NCBI GenBank assembly: GCA_964016885.1
Contig: CAXHJY010001529.1
Coordinates: 1-54,178 of the forward strand
Direction: 5' to 3'
From: Eledone cirrhosa
Lineage: Eukaryota
Length of the DNA stretch: 54,178 nt
Shown here: positions 1 through 53,697 of the stretch, one piece after another
Layout of the letters: each line of letters begins with the position of its first letter
Position numbering within the stretch: the first letter of the stretch is position 1
Notes under the pieces: generated by a model
Told to the model about the DNA's origin: nothing
Seen by the model: only the letters and a program-made list of their open reading frames with translations
The model's database searches: none
Position numbers and translations under genes: made by a program

Positions 1-2100
<2,100 letters not shown>

Positions 2101-2392
2101 ATAAAAACAAATAACGAAAAGAAATTAGATTTCGTTTCGCTTCTAACTCACTTTTGTATGACTGACGCTTAAGCAATTAAGTTAAAGTGTACATCTACGT
2201 ATGTATACGGAAGTATTAGTATGCATATAAATACACACATGTATACATATGTACATGTACTGAGTTTTTCACTAGACACTTTACAGTGAGTGTCAGCTAG
2301 TCTGTATGTAACCACACAGACGGACCGGCTTTTAGAGTCATACGAGCTTTCAAGGAAACACATTTCCTCTATTCTCCAGAGAGCCAGACAGG

Positions 2393-2437
2393 AATATTGG
2401 ACTAGTTTCGATGTTATTACATCTCATCAGCAATATT
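2393..2437 (-). ncRNA. Type I minimal hammerhead ribozyme
   Basis: Minus strand reads AAUAUUG-CUGAUGA-GAUGU(AAUA)ACAUC-GAAAC-UA-GUC^-CAAUAUU: 7-bp stem I, 5-bp stem II, full core, palindromic ACUAGU stem III. Confidence 0.92.
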
Positions 2438-2860
2438 TACCCATCTTCCGGCTTCTCTGGAGAATTGTAAAAGCACATATCGTTATATGCTTTTCTATGA
2501 AAATTAGTAGTGGGTAGACTAATTTGCATAGAACGTGAGTCATTGTACGCACCGGTTCAGCGGAAACGATAAAAACAAATAACGAAACGAAATTAAATTT
2601 CGTTTCGCTTCTAACTCACTTTTGTATGACTGACGCTTAAACAATTAAGTTAAAGTGTACATCTACATATGTATACGGAAGTATTAGTATGCATATAAAT
2701 ACACACATGTATACATATGTACATGTACTGAGTTTTTCACTAGACACTTTACAGTGAGTGTCAGCTAGTCTGTATGTAACCACACAGACGGACCGGGTTT
2801 TAGAGTCATACGAGTTTTCAAGGAAACACATTTCCTCTATTCTCCAGAGAGCCAGACAGG

Positions 2861-2905
2861 AATATTGGACTAGTTTCGATGTTATTACATCTCATCAGCA
2901 ATATT
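2861..2905 (-). ncRNA. Type I minimal hammerhead ribozyme (second copy)
   Basis: Identical to 2393-2437, 468 nt away. Confidence 0.92.
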
Positions 2906-3025
2906 TACCCATCTTCCGGCTTCACTGGAGAATTGTAAAAGCACATATCGTTATATGCTTTTTCTATGAAAATTAGTAGTGGGTAGACTAATTTGCATAA
3001 AACGTGAGTCATTGTACGCACCGGT

Positions 3026-3085
3026 ATATATATATATATATATATATATATACTTATTTATATATATATATATATATATATACAC

Positions 3086-3127
<42 letters not shown>

Positions 3128-3149
3128 TTATTTATATATATATATACAC

Positions 3150-3189
<40 letters not shown>

Positions 3190-3385
3190 TTATTTATATA
3201 TATATATATACTTATTTATATATATATATATACTTATTTATATATATATATATATATACTTATTTATATATATATATATATATATACACTTATATATATA
3301 TATATATATATACACTTATTTATATATATATATATATACTTATTTATATATATATATATACACTTATTTATATATATATATATAC

Positions 3386-3467
<82 letters not shown>

Positions 3468-3525
3468 TTATTTATATATATATATATATATATACTTATT
3501 TATTTATATATATATATATATATAC

Positions 3526-3558
<33 letters not shown>

Positions 3559-4473
3559 CTTATTTATATATATATATATATATATACTTATTTATATATA
3601 TATATATACTTATTTATATATATATATATATATACTTATTTATATATATATACATATATACTTATTTATATATATATACATATATACTTATTTATATTAT
3701 ATATATATATACACTTATTTATATATATATATATATATACTTATTTATATATATATATATATATACTTATTTATATATATATATATATATATACTTATTT
3801 ATATATATATATATATATACACTTATTTATATATATATATATACTTATTTATATATATATATATACTTATTTATATATATATATATAAACTTATTTATAT
3901 ATATATATATATATACACTTATTTATATATATATATATATACACTTATTTATATATATATATATATATATACACTTATTTATATATATATATATATATAC
4001 TTATTTATATATAATATATATATACACTTATTTATATATATATATATACACTTATTTATATATATATATATATATACACTTATTTATATATATATATACA
4101 CATATGTATATATATATTTGTAAATACACACACACATATATATATATACTTATATATATATATACTTATATATATATATACTTATATATATATATACATA
4201 TACTTATTTATATATATATATATATATACATATATGTATATAATACACATACATATTTATGTATATATATATAGATATATATACCTATATTTATGTATAT
4301 ATATACATATATAATACATACATATATATATATGTATATATATACATACATATATATGTATATATATACATACATATATATATGTATATATATACATACA
4401 TATATATATGTATATATATACATACATATATATTTATGTATATATATATATACATAGAAATATATATATGTAT
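3026..4473. repeat. (TA)n array with recurring TACTTATTTA unit
   Basis: Visible array. ORFs 2979..4274 and 3004..3888 are artefacts of it. Confidence 0.97.
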
Positions 4474-4474
4474 A

Positions 4475-4689
4475 AAGGATCGATCGACTTCCGTCAAATC
4501 GGACCGAGGAAACAATGTTTTCGTCGGTCTTTCCAGTTGCTAATACTATCTATCCGTCGCAACTCCTTGTAGGAGCAACGTGAAATAAAGTGTCTTGCTC
4601 AAGGACATAACGCATCGCCCGGTCCAGGAATAGAACTAACAATCTCAAGATTGTGAGTTCGATTCTCTAACCACTCAGCCACACGCCTT

Positions 4690-4690
<1 letters not shown>
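4475..4690 (-). mobile_element. tRNA-derived SINE, family B
   Basis: Minus strand has GGCGTGTGGCTGAGTGGTTAGA (A-box-like), AGTTCTATTCC (B-box-like) and TGTCCTTGAGCAAGACACTTT. Homologous to 8324-8543 and 35567-35781. Confidence 0.8.
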
Positions 4691-5052: not shown

Positions 5053-5214
5053 CATATATATATATATATGTAAATGCGCATAATAAAATACATGTAACTC
5101 TTTTAACCATCTTTTGTTCTTATATATTATATACATACATATATATACACACATATATTTGTATATGTATATATATATACATGTATATATATATGTATAT
5201 ATATATATACATAC

Positions 5215-5409: not shown

Positions 5410-5790
5410 TACATATATATATATGTATATATATATATATACATACGTATATATATACAAATATATATATACATATATAAATATATGTATATATATATAT
5501 TTATATCCATACATATATGTAATGTAGATATATATGAACATATATGTATATATATATATATATAAACATATGTATATATATATAATATATATATAAACAT
5601 ATGTATATATATATATATATATATATGAACATATGTATATATATATGTATATATATATAAACATATGTATATATATATATAAACATATGTATATATATAT
5701 ATATAAACATATGTGTATATATATATATATATAAACATGTATATACATAAACATATGTATATATTTATATATATAAACATAATATAATAT
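4691..5790. repeat. (TA)n/(TACA)n microsatellite array
   Basis: Visible. Contains a short inverted piece (5072-5120) of the element starting at 5792. Confidence 0.95.
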
Positions 5791-5791
5791 C

Positions 5792-5925
5792 AAAAGATGG
5801 TTAAAAGAGTTCCAAGTATTTTACTATGCGCATTTCAAAAACAAATATCATCATGAGATGATATCTGTGTTTTTATCTGATAAAATAGAGATATATGATA
5901 CGAAGTTTAAAAAACACTTGTGAAT
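5792..5925 (-). mobile_element. HHR-bearing repeat with decayed core (same family as 16490-16630)
   Basis: Shares GATGGTTAAA..GTTCCA..TATTTTA.TATGCGCATTTC with 16502. The minus-strand core reads CAGAUAA instead of CUGAUGA. Confidence 0.65.
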
Positions 5926-8776: not shown

Positions 8777-8975
8777 GGCGGTGGATTGGCAGTATCGGTA
8801 GAGGGTCGGACGCCAGGCTTTGAAGCATAGAGTTACGTCCCTTTATGATCTGAGTTCCAATCCCGCCGAGGTTAACTTTGCCTTTCATCCTTACGGGGTC
8901 GATAAAATAAAGTACCAGTAATGCACTGGGTTTTTGCTGGCCTTGTGTCTAAAGTAGAAACAATTATTATTATTA
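8777..8975 (+). mobile_element. tRNA-derived SINE, family A (copy 1 of tandem pair)
   Basis: GGCGGTGGATTGGCAGTATCGGTAGA head, GAGTTCCAATCC B-box-like motif, ACTTTGCCTTTCATCC body, (ATT)n tail. Confidence 0.85.
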
Positions 8976-8997
8976 TATATACATATGCATACGGTGA

Positions 8998-9195
8998 GCG
9001 GTGGATTGGCAGTATCGGTAGAGGGTCGGACGCCAGGCTTTGCAGCATAGAGTTACGTCCCTTTATGATCTGAGTTCCAATCCCGCCGAGGTTAACTTTG
9101 CCTTTCATCCTTACGGGGTCGATAAAATAAAGTACCAGTAATGTACTCGGTAATTGCTGGCCTTGTGCCTAAAATAGAAACAATGATTATTATTA
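8998..9195 (+). mobile_element. tRNA-derived SINE, family A (copy 2 of tandem pair)
   Basis: Near-identical direct copy of 8777-8975. Confidence 0.85.
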
Positions 9196-9579
9196 TATAT
9201 ATATTCAAAATGTTATATTGGCTAATACTTTGTAGTTGTTTCTAATTAAACGGTAGACCTTCCACAGTGTCAGCTAGTTTTCATGAAAGTTTCAAGCTGC
9301 AATAATATCTTAGTAGTTCAATATCATATGTTCTACCTGTAGACTCATCATGTCTCACTTCTATATTATTTTACTGTAATCATTCATTGAAAGATGTCCA
9401 GAAGTCAACTGGGCTTCGTCCAAATGACCTTAAGACCATTTGGACAAATTCCAGTTGGCTCAGAACTGGGTTGAGTAAAATAAATACCAGTCTCTAAATC
9501 AGTGTTCCCTTAGCTGAGCCATGATATCAAATTTCTGCCCCACGGGAATCAATAGTCTGTTTGTTAGTGTCACTTTATC

Positions 9580-11128: not shown

Positions 11129-11335
11129 GTAGAGCACTCAGTCGATGGGACGAGTTAGGTAGAAGTGGTTACACAACAGTTAGTTCACCATACCGAGAAC
11201 AATTGCTTCACCTTAGCGGATCCACACCTCGTAATGGACCCCCACGAGCTCGTAATGGTCCATTACGAGCTGATGATCTACTAAGGTGAAACAATTGTTC
11301 TCGGTATGGTGAACTAACTGTGTTGTGTAAGCATT

Positions 11336-16442: not shown

Positions 16443-16490
<48 letters not shown>

Positions 16491-16522
16491 AGAAATTAAA
16501 AGATGGTTAAAGAAGTTCCATA

Positions 16523-16592
16523 TATTTTATTATGCGCATTTCGAAAACATCATCATCCTGGGACAAAAATTGTGTACTCATCAGATAAAATA
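16523..16592 (-). ncRNA. Type I hammerhead ribozyme (AUA triplet, degenerate stem II)
   Basis: UAUUUUAU-CUGAUGA-[35 nt]-GAAAU-GCGC-AUA^-AUAAAAUA: 8-bp stem I, palindromic AUGCGCAU. Confidence 0.72.
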
Positions 16593-16788
16593 AGGTAACA
16601 TGATATGAGGCCTAAAAACACATGTCAACAAGAAAGTGTCCGTTCTACATATGACAGAAATGTAAGAGCAAGAAAAATATAGGAAAATAGAAGAAAAGGA
16701 AAAAGAAATAAAGGAGTTCTGCCAACTGTTGAGTGCTACTTATCTGATATATGCATAGTTTTATTGTTCTACAATATTACTCACCTTC

Positions 16789-18348: not shown

Positions 18349-20791
<2,443 letters not shown>

Positions 20792-36019: not shown

Positions 36020-36380
36020 AAGAGTAATGAATTCTTTTACAATGGAATTAGCTCGAAGAAGGAAATATTTCTGAGCCGTGTATAAACTAATATATATGAT
36101 GAAACACAGATACCAACACATCCGTATTTATATTGCAAAAGAAAATTTAGCCAGAATGAAGTATACTAATTATTATACTACAGTTTGTCCATATCGATTT
36201 AAAATAATAAATCAACAAAGACGAACTGCATTGCCAAATGGCTATGATGTTTAGACACATTTAAATTTCAAAATCAAACCTGTTCCGTAGATAAGTTTAA
36301 ACTTTAAAATCCAAATATGTTTCGAGATGAATAAGTGTAGGAATATCATGTCCTGCTCTCCTCAGTAAACATCCAGGGAC

Positions 36381-37123
36381 AAGTATGTATACGTACATAC
36401 ATATATGTATACAGACGTACAGTAGTATGTATACGTACATACATATATGTATACAGACGTTCCAGTAGTATGTATACGTACATACATATATATATACAGG
36501 CGTACAGTAGTATGTATACATATATATACATACATGCACACATATATATACGTACGTATGGATTTACCGAACATTTATTATAATGCTCGGTGTGTTTGTA
36601 AACAAACATCCCGAATTAATCCGTACAGTGTCTAGCAACCATCGTTGCCTTTTGTTCAACACTGACAAAGGAACGATGTACTAGTTTCAAGCTTATTAGC
36701 TATCGTCAGCACCGTATACCTTCCTGCCAGATCATTGAACGTCTGAAAGCATATATTTTCCTTATGCATATTAACGGCTGAGCAGCCTAATTTGCATATC
36801 GAGTGAGTTAATCGGCCGGGCACACCGAAAACGATAAACGGAAAAATGAAACGAAATTTCATTTCTCACTCTTAGTACAGCTGTTACTTAAATGTAAGTA
36901 TGTATACGTACATACATATATGTATACAGACGTACAGTAGTATGTATACATATATATACATACATGCACACTCATATATATGTACGTATGTGTGCATGTA
37001 TGTGTGCATGTATATATATATGTGTATACACACTACTGTACGTCTGTATACATATATGTATGTACGTATACATACTTATATTTAAGTAACAGCCGTATTA
37101 AGAGTGAGAAATGAAATTTCGTT
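36381..37123 (-). mobile_element. Sister retrozyme-like family (~425-bp unit): partial tandem plus inverted end
   Basis: Unit 36381-36833, then a new unit starts at 36834 after GAAAACG. 36848-36970 is inverted at ~37003-37123. Another copy at 39135. Confidence 0.75.
36673..36715 (-). ncRNA. Type I minimal hammerhead ribozyme
   Basis: ACGGUG-CUGACGA-uAGCU(AAUA)AGCUu-GAAAC-UA-GUA^-CAUCGU. Confidence 0.87.
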
Positions 37124-37208
37124 TCTCATGTATATATATTTATATATATACATACGTTTATATATATATCTATATATATATATACATTATGTATATATAT
37201 ATACATTC

Positions 37209-41532: not shown

Positions 41533-44080
41533 CTTTCTTTATTTGCCACAGGGGCGTACATAAAGGGGACATTACAAGACGTGACGGCGGGGATTTTACA
41601 TAAAAATCATATAACTTTAACATTAATAAATAACAATAAAATATATATAATAAAATAATTGAAATCCCCAATAGGGGGGAACATTACTGCAGGGTTGTTT
41701 TACACCCAGTGGATAGAACAACCCTCAACACCAGGAACACGTGTTGTAGGTGTTCCCGTCTTACCTCTGTTTATCTTCCTCAACCTACAGGTTTATATAC
41801 AGAGAAGGCCCATTCACTCGGGCCATTTTCGCCACACTTACCCACCTTTCAGCGAATTTACTGGGGGTAGCACCTTCCTTCTGAAGTGATACTTAAAGAA
41901 GAGGATAAGTTGTTGTCCGGAGAGAAAGGTGTTTGCCCTCAGTCCTTTTAAACTCGTCCACCATATTGCCTCTTTCGCCATAGCCACCAGACAGAGGAAA
42001 ACCGCCTCGCCTACATTCTTAAATGAAGGCGGCGAGGTGATCCTCACGATGGACTCGGCTGACAACTGGATGCGTCCCACACGTGACAGCAGCTGTTCGA
42101 CATAATTCCACAGGTCGGTCACCCCTGGGTACTGAACAATTGCGTGCAGAACGGTTTCGATGTCCTGCTCGCACCTTGGACAGGTCCTTTTGGCAGGATC
42201 TCTTCCAGGGCGTCCGTGCCTGTAGATTTTGTCTCAAACTGGTAGAGCTCCTCGGTACCACTGCCAGGCCAGAGACCTCTGGAAGTTATCCATAGGCCCT
42301 GGACAGAAAGTCCTCCCGAACAGACTGGTCAGTTTGTCCTCCTCGATGCCTAAAGTTTTCCTCGAGAACGTCGTCGCACTTATCCTCCACTAATCCCCTA
42401 TAGAATGTCGAAGTGGAGGCTCCGCTGATTGCTGTTTCCGCTTGGTAGAGGGCTGTGAGCGCCTGTCGGCACTCGAGGTGCCAGGCACCCATTTTCGGTC
42501 TTCGCTTGACCCAGGACTGCAGCTCTGTTAGTGAGACGAGTTGTGGAAGAGCTTGTTTCACAAACGACAGCCACACCGGTTCACCGGTCAGGAATAGCTG
42601 GAGATGGCGTAGCCTCAGCGCATGTTTGCGCATCATCAGCCACAGCATGCTCAGCCCTCCGTTAGAAGGGTGTTGACAGCAAATGGATCTCCTCACGAAT
42701 GGAGCCTGTTTCTTCCAGAGGAACTTGAAGAGTAGGCGTTCCATTTTGGTAAGATATTCGCGGGGGCAAGGCACGGTTGTCAAGCTGTAGTAGATGACGG
42801 ACGCTAGGTAAGTGTTCGCCACCTCCTCTCGACCTTTCAAGGAGAGTTTTCACTCAGCCCACTTCTCGGTGAGTGCAAACACCTTCGCCGTGACCTCGTT
42901 CCAGTTCTTGTCCACCTGGAAGTCTGGACCGAACCAGACTCCGATCAATTTCACCAGTCCTTCCGTCCAGTGTCCAACGACACTGTCGGAAGGCATGAGT
43001 TTGCCTCTCCATGTGCCGAGTTGCAAAGCGACAGACTTGTTTGGGTTTAGTCTTGCTCCTGTCAACGTTTCGTATTCATGTAATAGGTTGCCGATTGCCC
43101 TGGTTTCCGAGGTTTTCGACACCATTACGGTTATGTCGTCGGCATAGGCTGACGCTGCTTTCCGCAGTCCTGGTTCGATCGGGATGCCCTGCAACAGCTC
43201 CAATTTCCGCAGTAACGGCTCGATAGTCAGTACATACAGAATGGAGGAGAGAGGGTATCCCTGACGAATGGAACGCATGATTTGGAATGGCTCTAATAGG
43301 TACCCATTCACCTTGACTACCGAGCAGATGCTGGTGTGCATGGCAGCGATCCAGCCTCTGAAGACGGGACCGAAGCCGGCCGCCTTGAGAACTGCTTCCA
43401 ATTATTGATGGTCGCCCCTATCAAATGCCTTAGACTGATCTAAATTGATCAGAGCCCCACCAAACCAGGTTTACACCCTACACTCTCTATGATGTATTGC
43501 CCGAGGGTGAGGTTGTCGTGTATGGACCTGGTCGGGATTGCACACGTTTCGGCTTCCCCTACCAGGTTCTCGACGACAAGCGCCATCCTTGCTGCTAACA
43601 CATTGGTCAAAATCTTTAACTCTGTGTTGAGCAGAGTTATGGGCATGAAATTGCTGATCTCACCCCCCTTGTTCTCATCTTTCCTGATCAGCGCAACTAC
43701 GCCTCTGCCTACAGAACTGGGAATCCTCCCGTTCTGCTGCCAGTTGCAGTAGACCGCGTCGAAGACGCCAGAGAACAAGTCAGCCATGCCTATGTAAGAC
43801 TCATAGGGTAGACCATCTAAACCGGGTGAGTTGTGTTTCCCTCAGCGGCCTAGGGCATCTTCTATTTTGCCCGCTGTGATCGGCCTTTCGCAGCTCTCCG
43901 CATCCTTGCTCAAGAGTCGCGGTACGCCGTCGAAGTAGGAGCTGAAGTCCATCACCTCGCTCGATGTACCGCTTTGCCCGAACAGTTGCTTAAAATGCTG
44001 CTGGAAGGCCGCGCACATCTGTTTGGATTCAAGTATAATGTGTCCATATTTGTCTTGCAAAGACCGAATTGTAGATTTGT
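41533..44080 (-). mobile_element. 5'-truncated Tx1/L1-clade LINE (ORF2 reverse transcriptase, frameshifted)
   Basis: FMPITLLNTELKILTNVLAARM, SIRQGYPLSSILYVLTIEPLL, AYADDITV, GGLSM and zinc knuckle CPRCEQDIETVLHAIVQY (~42125-42185). AATAAA near the 3' end. Confidence 0.93.
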
Positions 44081-46149: not shown

Positions 46150-46150
<1 letters not shown>

Positions 46151-46705
46151 TTCGTTTCTGAATTTGTTTAGCAAGATTCTTTATCTGAAATCGTGTGTTG
46201 AAACCGATATTGTTATACTTTGGGAGGGTCATGTTGCCAATAAGAAACACACGCACCAGTTGCTTTCACTTCAATTTATATATTTATAAATTTATAAATT
46301 TACAAATCTACAAACTTATAAATTTCTGGTTGGTTGGTTGGTTCCACAACCAGATAGTTGTTTATATATATAGTCATAGTCCTTTCGTCACACACTCTGT
46401 GACCTCTTCAGTGACTGGGGATTCCTTTCTTCGTTTCTGTGCCTTTTCTTTCTTCTATCCTACGCCATTTTGTTTCTGTGTGTGTGTTTGTGACCTCTTC
46501 AAACTGAGCACACAGAGTGTGTGACGAAAGGACTATTACTATATATATAAACAACTATCTGGTTGTGGAACCAACCAACCAACCAGAAATTTATAAGTTT
46601 GTAGATTTGTAAATTTATAAATTTATAAATATATAAATTGAAGTGAATGCAACTGGTGCGTGTGTTTCTTATTGGCAACATGACCCTCCCAAAGTATAAC
46701 AATAT
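46150..46705 (-). mobile_element. Inverted-repeat (195-bp arms) plus tail element with HHR
   Basis: 46207-46401 is the inverse of 46511-46705. Tail 46150-46206. Related scraps at 44770-44821 and 29086-29110. Confidence 0.8.
46372..46416 (-). ncRNA. Type I minimal hammerhead ribozyme (CUA triplet)
   Basis: AGUCA-CUGAAGA-g-GUCACA(GAGUG)UGUGAC-GAAAG-GA-CUA^-UGACU. Confidence 0.78.
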
Positions 46706-46786
46706 ATTTATATATATTTATATATATTTATATTTATATATATTTATATTTATATATATTTATATATATTTATATTTATATATATT

Positions 46787-46847
<61 letters not shown>

Positions 46848-46977
46848 GCAAAGTTTTATTTAAATTGTTGGGTTAACAACGAGTAAATATTTATAACTGA
46901 TATAAAAGCACTCGACAAGTATTTGGAGTATATTTACGATATTAAATAAATGGAAACTATATTTATAAAACCATATT

Positions 46978-47043
46978 TATTTCATTATATATATTTCAGG
47001 GATATCATATTAAAAATATGTTATGCCTTCTTCAGACAAAATA
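46978..47043 (-). ncRNA. Type I hammerhead ribozyme (left arm)
   Basis: Reverse complement of 47713-47778. Confidence 0.78.
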
Positions 47044-47712
47044 CAATATAAACAGTCTTATAAATAGATAGATTCGACATATGATCATTATTTTTCACAC
47101 ATTATTGATACGTGTCTCATTCACGAATACTGATATTTACATTATATTGCCTGTTTTATACGAATTGATATTTTTTTACATTGATGAAACATAGTGTTTT
47201 AAATCTGCCTCGTTTATGTCTGGATATTTTTCTTTTCTCTCTATGTAACGGCTGTTTTCTCTCTTAACCACATATATCTCTCTCTACATTAATACTAGAG
47301 CTAAATAAATAAATAAATAAATAAATAAATATATCATTGATACGTCATTCAACTGGTGCCCAACTACCTATTTTCTTTCTCTCTATCTCTATCTATATCT
47401 ATCTCTCTATATTTTCTCTCTCTCTCTCTCTCCTCTCTTCTCTCTTTCTCTCTCTATCTATCTCCCTCTGTGTTTTTTTTCCTCTCTCTCTATATCTCTC
47501 TCTGTTTCTTTACATGAATTTCTTCTCTCTATCTATCTCTCTATATCTATCTCTCTCTATTTAGTTGCATGCATTTCTTCTTTTTCTTCGTTTTTCTTTC
47601 TTTCTTTTTATAACTGTCCCTAATATTTTTTCACTACCAAATCAACTTTTCAAATAGAAGTCGAAGTTGAAAGGTATGTCGAATCTATCTATTTATAAGA
47701 CTGTTTATATTG

Positions 47713-47778
47713 TATTTTGTCTGAAGAAGGCATAACATATTTTTAATATGATATCCCTGAAATATATATAATGAAATA
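47713..47778 (+). ncRNA. Type I hammerhead ribozyme (right arm)
   Basis: UAUUUUGU-CUGAAGA-AGGcAUAaCAUAUU(UUU)AAUAUGaUAUcCCU-GAAAU-AUAU-AUA^-AUGAAAUA. Confidence 0.78.
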
Positions 47779-47820
47779 AATATGGTTTTATAAATATAGT
47801 TTCCATTTATTTAATATCGT

Positions 47821-50800
<2,980 letters not shown>

Positions 50801-53004: not shown

Positions 53005-53697
53005 ATATTATATTATAATTTATATTATATATATATATTTATATTATATATATATATTTATATTATATATATATATTCATATTATATATATATATATATA
53101 TGATATATATATATTTATATTATATATATATATATTTATATTATATATATATATATTTATATTATATATATATATATTTATATTATATATATATATTTAT
53201 ATTATATATATAGTTTTAATATAGATGAGATTCTACAGGACTAGAACTGTTTCATTCATTAGAAATCATCAGGAATGAATGAAACAGTTCTAGTCCTGTA
53301 GAATCTCATCTATATTAAACCTGTTATACTCTGCTATGTATTGAGTACCTTACTTACTGTGGTTACCTCCGATTCAACCCGGAATAACGTATATTATATA
53401 TATATATATTTATATTATATATATATATATTTATATTATATATATATATATTTATATATTATATATATATATATTTATATTATATATATATATTTATATT
53501 ATATATATATATATTTATATTATATATATATATATATTTATATTATATATATATATATATTTATATTATATATATATATATATTTATATTATATATATAT
53601 ATATATTTATATTATATATATATATATATTTATATTATATATTTATATATATATATATTTATATTATATATATATATATATATTTATATTATATATT

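Follow-up and report, generated by a model that had tools for sequence, protein, structure and literature searches.

The window, that is, the whole stretch of 54,178 nucleotides of Eledone cirrhosa DNA that was analysed, contains an insertion of 925 bases (2101-3025) that is flanked on both sides by (TA)n tracts and is almost certainly a member of a young non-LTR retrozyme family. The insertion comprises 1.97 head-to-tail copies, with a pairwise identity of 98.0% over 457 nt. The repeat period is 468 up to position 2494 and 469 past a 1-nt indel, and alternative periods of 460-475 gave an identity of 23-34%. Units are numbered here from u1, the base directly after the predicted ribozyme cleavage site, so that the element reads u312-469, u1-468, u1-299 and then (TA)n. 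This copy (299 + 468 + 158 nt) begins at the family-wide fixed end u299, is 5'-truncated at u312 and is one-armed, consisting of the u299 arm alone. The first-pass annotation had proposed a 468-bp tandem dimer; the two nearly identical copies within (TA)n were borne out, whereas the structure proved to be a truncated single arm and no clean dimer. The following features were distinguished:

5..2100: left (TA)n target tract
2101..3025, minus strand: whole insertion, a family-A retrozyme arm with its 3' end at u299 and 5'-truncated at u312
2101..2399, minus strand: terminal piece u1-u299, with five private changes in this copy; 2101 is the "long" end, the putative first reverse-transcription start
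2101..2174, minus strand: tail of the Penelope-like element (PLE) type, u226-u299, 74 nt long (69 nt if counted from u231), bounded by the two 3' ends common to the family, 2175/2170 and 2101
2393..2437, minus strand: type I hammerhead 1, with a cut predicted between positions 2400 and 2399; core CUGAUGA at 2430-2424, stem II at 2423-2410, palindrome ACUAGU at 2406-2401
2400..2867, minus strand: full monomer, 468 nt long against 469 in most of the family, predicted to be a circular RNA
2583..2607: near-perfect hairpin at u261-287 within the tail, matched by a counterpart near 2115-2139 in the terminal piece
2861..2905, minus strand: type I hammerhead 2, with the same sequence as hammerhead 1 and a cut predicted between positions 2868 and 2867
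2868..3025, minus strand: 5' partial unit u312-u469, its truncation point joined to TA
3026..4450: right (TA)n target tract

A type I hammerhead is present in both units of the element, with a stem I of AAUAUUG/CAAUAUU (7 bp), the core CUGAUGA, stem II GAUGU/ACAUC, GAAA, C-UA-G and a GUC triplet. Its helices (I, 7 bp; II, 5 bp; III, 2 bp and palindromic) correspond to the canonical metazoan form and not to the min-HHR form. Identical minus-strand hammerheads, a spacing of 468 nt between their cleavage sites and the lack of a meaningful ORF had all been noted in the first-pass annotation, and each was confirmed: the sequences and parts at 2393-2437 and 2861-2905 match exactly, C17 lies at 2400 and 2868, and the longest stop-to-stop frame is 84 aa, with no RT + GIY-YIG ORF. 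Base counts give the unit a GC content of 36%; it shows no evident LTR layout. Rfam returned no match at the gathering score in the window. Both motifs match Hammerhead_HH9 at the E-value threshold (32.4 bits, E 4.8e-6, the gathering score being 52 bits), while Hammerhead_1, the model named in the first-pass annotation, was not among the matches listed. Matches to miRNAs at the E-value threshold were dismissed as AT-rich hairpins well under the cut-off.

The hammerhead strand of the unit is predicted to be highly paired, with a circular MFE of -159.5 compared to -93.7 ± 4.8 for 40 shuffles (z -13.7) and a weaker excess on the opposite strand (z -7.4). Pairing is kept in 99% of the cells across 24 representative units, and 7 of 144 pairs are altered on both sides in this set (shuffles, 3 of 500; relatedness not corrected for). 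The predicted fold pairs u1-30 with u404-437. In the monomer MFE the CUG of the core pairs with the UAG of stem III, tying up the core, and the two ACUAGU palindromes are predicted to form a duplex of -6.2 kcal/mol. Dimer-dependent cleavage, by analogy with newt and axolotl, would fit the mis-paired monomer core together with the palindrome duplex, and a double-hammerhead step through ACUAGU is plausible on this model.

Several other hammerhead-bearing elements were observed in the window. A relative belonging to the more distant family C (see below) lies on the minus strand at 36380-37130, with a hammerhead at 36709, a CUAG stem III and an inverted arm. A head-to-head pair in TA at 46850-47830 carries another type I hammerhead with a UAUAUA stem III (47035, minus; 47721, plus), which has a relative at 20560 (plus). 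An inverted pair at 46150-46720, also in TA, belongs to a further family with a GGAC stem III (46411, minus), often found beside other loci. The region 16490-16700 holds a family with a palindromic UGCGCA stem III (16584, minus), of which two decayed pieces occur at 5750-5900 and 5070-5115. Short fold-back insertions from a hammerhead-bearing end are present at 53190-53400 (53272, minus) and 11190-11330 (11270, plus). The window also includes a reverse transcriptase fragment (RVT_1, E 2.4e-10) in a GC-rich stretch at 42850-43401 (minus), a 220-bp SINE-like tandem pair at 8778-9201 and a SINE at about 4480-4690.

In the 3.0 Gb genome, the exact 31-nt hammerhead was found in 1,463 copies (control 0), and the end junction between u299 and (TA)n recurs identically at 2,173 places across the whole genome (control 0); the family-A version of the u225 junction is present at 172 exact places. 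At least 426 sequence matches were obtained with 39 of 1,070 candidates scored, and arrays reach 39 or more units. Subfamily B, which is common and about 89% alike, has a GUU instead of a GUC triplet, and the A-U pair of its stem II is replaced by U-A. The homology of family C extends over u140-478 (64%, E 7e-26), the stretch over which its relative in the window matches, and this family likewise shows long and short ends, by eye, in four loci (L182, L193, L198 and L202). Genome-wide, 40,598 hammerheads share the CUAG stem III (control 11). The unit (window 2275-2670 compared) was also found in runs X2, X3 and X7, from three other organisms; in X7 the compensatory stem II pair of the B type is present, and a 499-nt contig of X2 wraps round the unit, as tandem DNA would also do.

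An octamer, ATGCAAAT, is located at u340-347 (window 2522-2529 and 2991-2998, minus strand) and is common to families A, B and C. It may point to an snRNA-type promoter, as for newt satellite 2. An essential role as promoter is doubtful, as haplotypes that break ATGCAAAT fill entire arrays at many loci, and a contrast of 849 versus 4 was discounted as a test because it sets a single site against a single site and is inflated by a propagating sublineage.

Full cores are intact in 354 of 365 sampled copies, which were partly picked by their core. Among loci not picked via the hammerhead, no inherited change was seen in 385 core observations or in 140 of stem III, compared to 323 in 14,908 elsewhere; the tail, which is partly fixed by locus choice, showed 6 in 2,538. 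These counts indicate that the hammerhead core is under selection for propagation. Decay of the core as fast as the flanks had been put forward in the first-pass annotation as evidence against its reading, and is not what the copies display. That reading, a candidate retrozyme, is strengthened by the 1,463 exact hammerheads, the long arrays, the change-free core, the strong fold and the compensatory pairs. The retrozyme class and its link to PLEs are already in print, and the present family, evidently a young non-autonomous retroelement, is a fresh member of that class.

From 132 non-redundant loci, selected through similarity over the whole unit, through the hammerhead or through a single end pattern (so that one end was sometimes fixed, never both), 131 insertions were parsed, and setting aside six compound or cut loci left 125. 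Eighty of these are two-armed, and in all 80 the arms are head-to-head with their 3' ends outward. Four are incomplete; among the 76 complete ones, 71 have one end at u296-300 (the family end u299, "long") and the other at u224-231 ("short"), five have one odd end, and none combines two long or two short ends. Standard 3' ends adjoin TA in 184 of 203 cases, while 5' ends are scattered across the unit and the median arm is 583 nt. The cleavage site is crossed by 163 of 198 arms without any pile-up there, hammerhead-picked loci favouring such crossing, and 8 of 198 arms stop at u1 against about 7.6 expected, in an 18-nt span that BLAST cannot resolve. Of 410 unit junctions, 380 are perfect, 28 have substitutions and two have an indel. 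An inverted 5'-truncated arm, a one-sided tail and (TA)n targeting, features of PLE-mobilised copies, are all present in the family. As the paired long and short ends, the head-to-head arms and the TA targets match PLE anatomy, PLE-type priming is well supported, and we infer that the family very probably inserts in this way. Two further observations concern individual arms. The insertion L008:1343-1969 shares its start at u312 with the window copy and stops 1 nt beyond the cleavage site, so that it was possibly primed on a cut RNA end; the arms of L007, L023 and L052 halt at u457-458, in the 3' strand of hammerhead stem II, a possible pause of the reverse transcriptase.

The nature of the template can be approached through sequence variants. 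Arrays have haplotypes of their own, common to the two arms. Where a site was covered in each arm and also at another index (16,604 sites), rare alleles were insertion-wide in 36 cases, confined to the same index in seven, distributed over other subsets in 17 and private in 255. Insertion-wide rare changes are dominated by A>G (32, against 6 T>C, 3 C>T and 2 G>A), while private changes are strand-symmetric (39 A>G, 52 T>C, 43 C>T and 50 G>A; Fisher p 1.4e-5). This excess rests on three clusters, without which it stands at 12 vs 6 (p 0.24), and counted by insertion it is 14 vs 6 (p 0.12). The 5' neighbours of the insertion-wide A>G changes are A in 15, U in 10, C in 4 and G in 3 cases (background 98, 98, 52 and 49), a direction that we take to be that of ADAR and that is insignificant alone. 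Some T>C "clusters" were rejected as partly alignment noise at palindromic junctions (L064, L217).

All three informative A>G clusters are insertion-wide. In L080, 11 A>G changes within u311-435 are repeated in two full units and a partial third, and the three genome matches of this motif all lie in L080. In L223, seven rare A>G changes occur in each covering piece of both arms, and all four genome matches of the motif lie in L223. The third cluster, a haplotype equal to B with three clustered A>G changes added, is found in 70 units across seven insertions; in the four insertions examined, each covering unit has all three changes and hardly any other substitution. As these arrays are nearly free of other changes, the long arrays appear to have been born long, and very recently. 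The youngest insertions lie at 30.83 Mb on C1 and at 30.95 Mb on C18. In a linear multimer, editing would act on each unit separately. A circular monomer read repeatedly is the simplest explanation of the haplotypes, the insertion-wide clusters and the exact junctions, and the template was probably a covalent circle. The seven same-index variants, together with higher-order repeats in the long arrays L061, L062 and L065, imply that multimer templates or later duplication at the DNA level also happen. Conversion following a single edit, with loss of the donor, is another possible source of shared changes.

A linear self-cleaved monomer would explain the shared edits equally well: stem I would hold its two ends together and the reverse transcriptase, on reaching the 5' end, would jump back to its 3' end, without any need for a covalent circle. 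The predicted pairing of u1-30 with u404-437, the end of L008 and a 13-nt duplication just past the cleavage site in L054 are in line with it. Template jumps, as known from work on R2, usually leave indel scars. Yet 408 of the 410 junctions lack any inserted or lost base and there is no surplus of arms halting at u1, which makes this route unlikely. No more probable is transcription of a pre-existing array into a linear multimer that serves uncut as the template, with the order of the array inherited and the hammerhead being protein-assisted or a passenger. The weak stem III, the mis-paired core of the monomer and the same-index variants shared by the two arms (as with G79C, present in units 1-2 of each L067 arm) speak for such a template, as does the uptake of unprocessed RNA by an Anolis PLE in vitro (PMC11167929), but the independently edited units it predicts are at odds with three insertion-wide clusters, two of them unique in the genome. 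The selection on the core also counts against it, and at the observed median arm length most copies are too short to have templated the 7-17-unit arms of the youngest lineage.

Amplification as a DNA-level satellite (unequal exchange, gene conversion or circular DNA), in which selection for G-U wobble would favour A>G changes, is highly improbable. It accords with the preservation of pairs by A>G on the hammerhead strand and with the higher-order repeats at 95.62 Mb on C1, but not with 2,173 dispersed sites at which the ends are fixed and asymmetric between strands, or with mutation-free arrays bearing both standard ends, and wobble selection would have lifted C>T too, which accounts for 3 of 55 changes. 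As an origin, DNA-level amplification is largely refuted, and it would act secondarily, in a small number of long arrays. At 95.62-95.68 Mb on C1 (genome G000; L062, L063) an array of at least 60 kb consists of a 470-nt variant with higher-order repeats, in which 39 units were read and matches, spaced at a period of 2,817 nt, run on as far as 95.68 Mb; this array is a retrozyme becoming a satellite.

The genome contains 10,596 GIY-YIG candidates, of which 150 were scored. Its coding PLEs comprise a reverse transcriptase, a CX4CxxC linker and, at the C terminus, a GIY-YIG domain, in frames of 478-938 aa (one reverse transcriptase frame reaches 1,096 aa), and their domain make-up places them in the Neptune type as defined in the available text of Craig et al. 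2021 (PMC8557442). Like the retrozymes, they have paired long and short ends that lie in TA; for one of the proteins the named relatives are bivalve (45-50% identity). No homology of the unit to PLEs or pLTRs beyond low-complexity matches was found in ten reference copies and 50 PLE loci, a minority of the families in the genome, and no CUAG-stem hammerhead is attached to a PLE at 50 GIY-YIG loci. Variant hammerheads with U3 (U3-A8 pair) and CCGG as their palindromic stem III are present in the pLTRs of three coding families (L161:2452 and 7431, minus; L167:2576, minus; L135:2205, plus), and in the GPRLNTSP family, named after the end of its protein, GCAA replaces GAAA. A longer-stem hammerhead pattern was rejected as a lead to the partner (984 vs 496 in the control, mostly retrozyme variants or chance), and a resemblance between the retrozyme long end and an end of the RPTLNKV family was dropped, that end being the short end of the PLE.

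Among 249 outer ends, 23 lack nearby TA and three match PLE references. At 41.49 Mb on C1, a family-A long-end arm is joined via u85-125 to 2.4 kb of a PLE of the GPRLNTSP family, the PLE part ending at the short end of that family with no TA between; at 69.44 Mb, a B arm enters the final 250 nt of the same family and ends at its long end. Both fusions (n=2) are thus with the 3' part of one PLE family and are TA-free. The PLE arm of L348 differs by 1.6% from the family majority and has a stop and a frameshift, while its retrozyme arm differs by 0.4-1%; the fusion in L229 combines two long ends. A third presumed chimera, L192, was rejected as a junction to an old fragment of another PLE. The GPRLNTSP family is therefore proposed only tentatively as the source of the partner enzyme. 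Two other families, RPTLNKV and KPKLNEQ, in which most copies are less than 1% from the majority, look younger.

The explanation that we consider likely is that a Neptune-type PLE, starting at two sites, reverse-transcribed an ADAR-edited circular monomer by rolling circle. The hammerhead strand of an array would be transcribed, and the RNA would self-cleave into monomers of 468-469 nt, probably as a double hammerhead via ACUAGU or with the assistance of a protein. A host ligase would close the monomer into a circle, and ADAR would now and then edit the highly paired RNA. The PLE protein would nick both (TA)n strands, with one nick priming at u299 and the other at u225/230. Each cDNA would circle the template for 0.1 to more than 14 turns, and the far ends of both cDNAs would join via short homology. 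A more specific proposal, on which we are evenly divided, is that a PLE protein dimer loads a single circle and copies it from two fixed, strand-specific starts, that the family is still active, that ADAR edits found arrays and subfamilies and that the GPRLNTSP family supplies the enzyme.

Metazoan non-LTR retrozymes (PMC7229834) resemble the present family in that their tandem units are non-coding and carry a single type I hammerhead, and further in a GC content below 50%, a highly self-paired predicted circle and coexisting PLEs, those of axolotl and newt also in the short palindromic helix III. Their units span about 170-450 nt, compared to 468-469 nt here, and their expression and cleavage have been demonstrated, whereas for the family in E. 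cirrhosa both are predicted. The available text of that paper (Cervera and de la Pena 2020) proposes circle-templated reverse transcription by PLEs and describes no two-armed insertions, fixed starts, TA targeting, editing marks or cephalopod. Target-site duplications of a non-LTR retrozyme, where present, would be expected to exceed 4 bp; here they are unreadable because the ends lie in (TA)n.

Retrozymes have been regarded by Li, Clavereau and Pollet 2026 (10.64898/2026.07.22.740005) as non-autonomous derivatives or clients of PLEs, on the evidence of co-occurrence and pLTR homology and with the mechanism left open. Their units measure 51-972 bp in 35 genomes, with no mollusc among those in the available text, and only one of nine Xenopus retrozyme dimers cleaved. 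Arrays are attributed there to local amplification, whereas in the present family ends and edits argue for arrays born long, and in contrast to the pLTR homology reported there, no pLTR homologue was found among the sampled PLEs.

In the accessible text on EN+ PLEs, copies are inverted and truncated with a usually one-ended tail (PMC8557442; bioRxiv 2021.04.23.441226), and Frangieh et al. 2024 (PMC11167929) place the tail between two internal reverse-transcription starts, with both strands extended. The present family shares with these elements (PMC8557442, PMC11167929) the inverted 5'-truncated arm, the tail at one end, AT-rich or (TA)n targets, the extension of both strands and a hammerhead upstream of two internal starts, and its (TA)n targeting is shared with Neptune, Naiad and Hydra PLEs. 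Unlike them, it has no ORF, a tail of 69-74 nt instead of 30-40 and tandem arms of many turns. For the Anolis PLE in vitro, the hammerhead was dispensable, uncut RNA was preferred and the start site was the same on both strands (PMC11167929); genomic copies here are strictly one-long-one-short, in contrast to this lack of a strand difference in Anolis Poseidon PAc. The min-HHRs of PLEs (PMC4209133) are likewise of type I with a predicted action as dimers, but have a helix II of 7-8 bp, a helix I of 4-5 bp and no helix III, compared to 5 bp, 7 bp and a palindromic helix III of 2 bp here.

In the literature outside subscription journals, Repbase and Dfam, neither a report of a cephalopod retrozyme nor one of editing marks in retrozyme arrays was found, and the supplements of PMC7229834 and 10.64898/2026.07.22.740005 might include related repeats. 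The insertion footprint and the editing barcode do not appear in the available retrozyme literature. The re-entry of retrozymes into DNA and the circle as its template have been proposed, yet are undemonstrated, in the accessible text of the retrozyme papers. If a PLE dimer indeed copies one circle, the present family would provide direct genomic proof of a circle-templated step hitherto assumed, and the PLE-linked hammerhead would acquire a role. With its near-identical young unit, two mapped starts, a known target and a candidate enzyme family, it represents a test system in which A>G clusters serve as natural barcodes tracing an array to one RNA molecule. It would also imply that RNA editing is able to found new transposon lineages and, given the abundance of hammerheads with the same stem III, that ribozyme repeats may make up a sizeable fraction of this genome.
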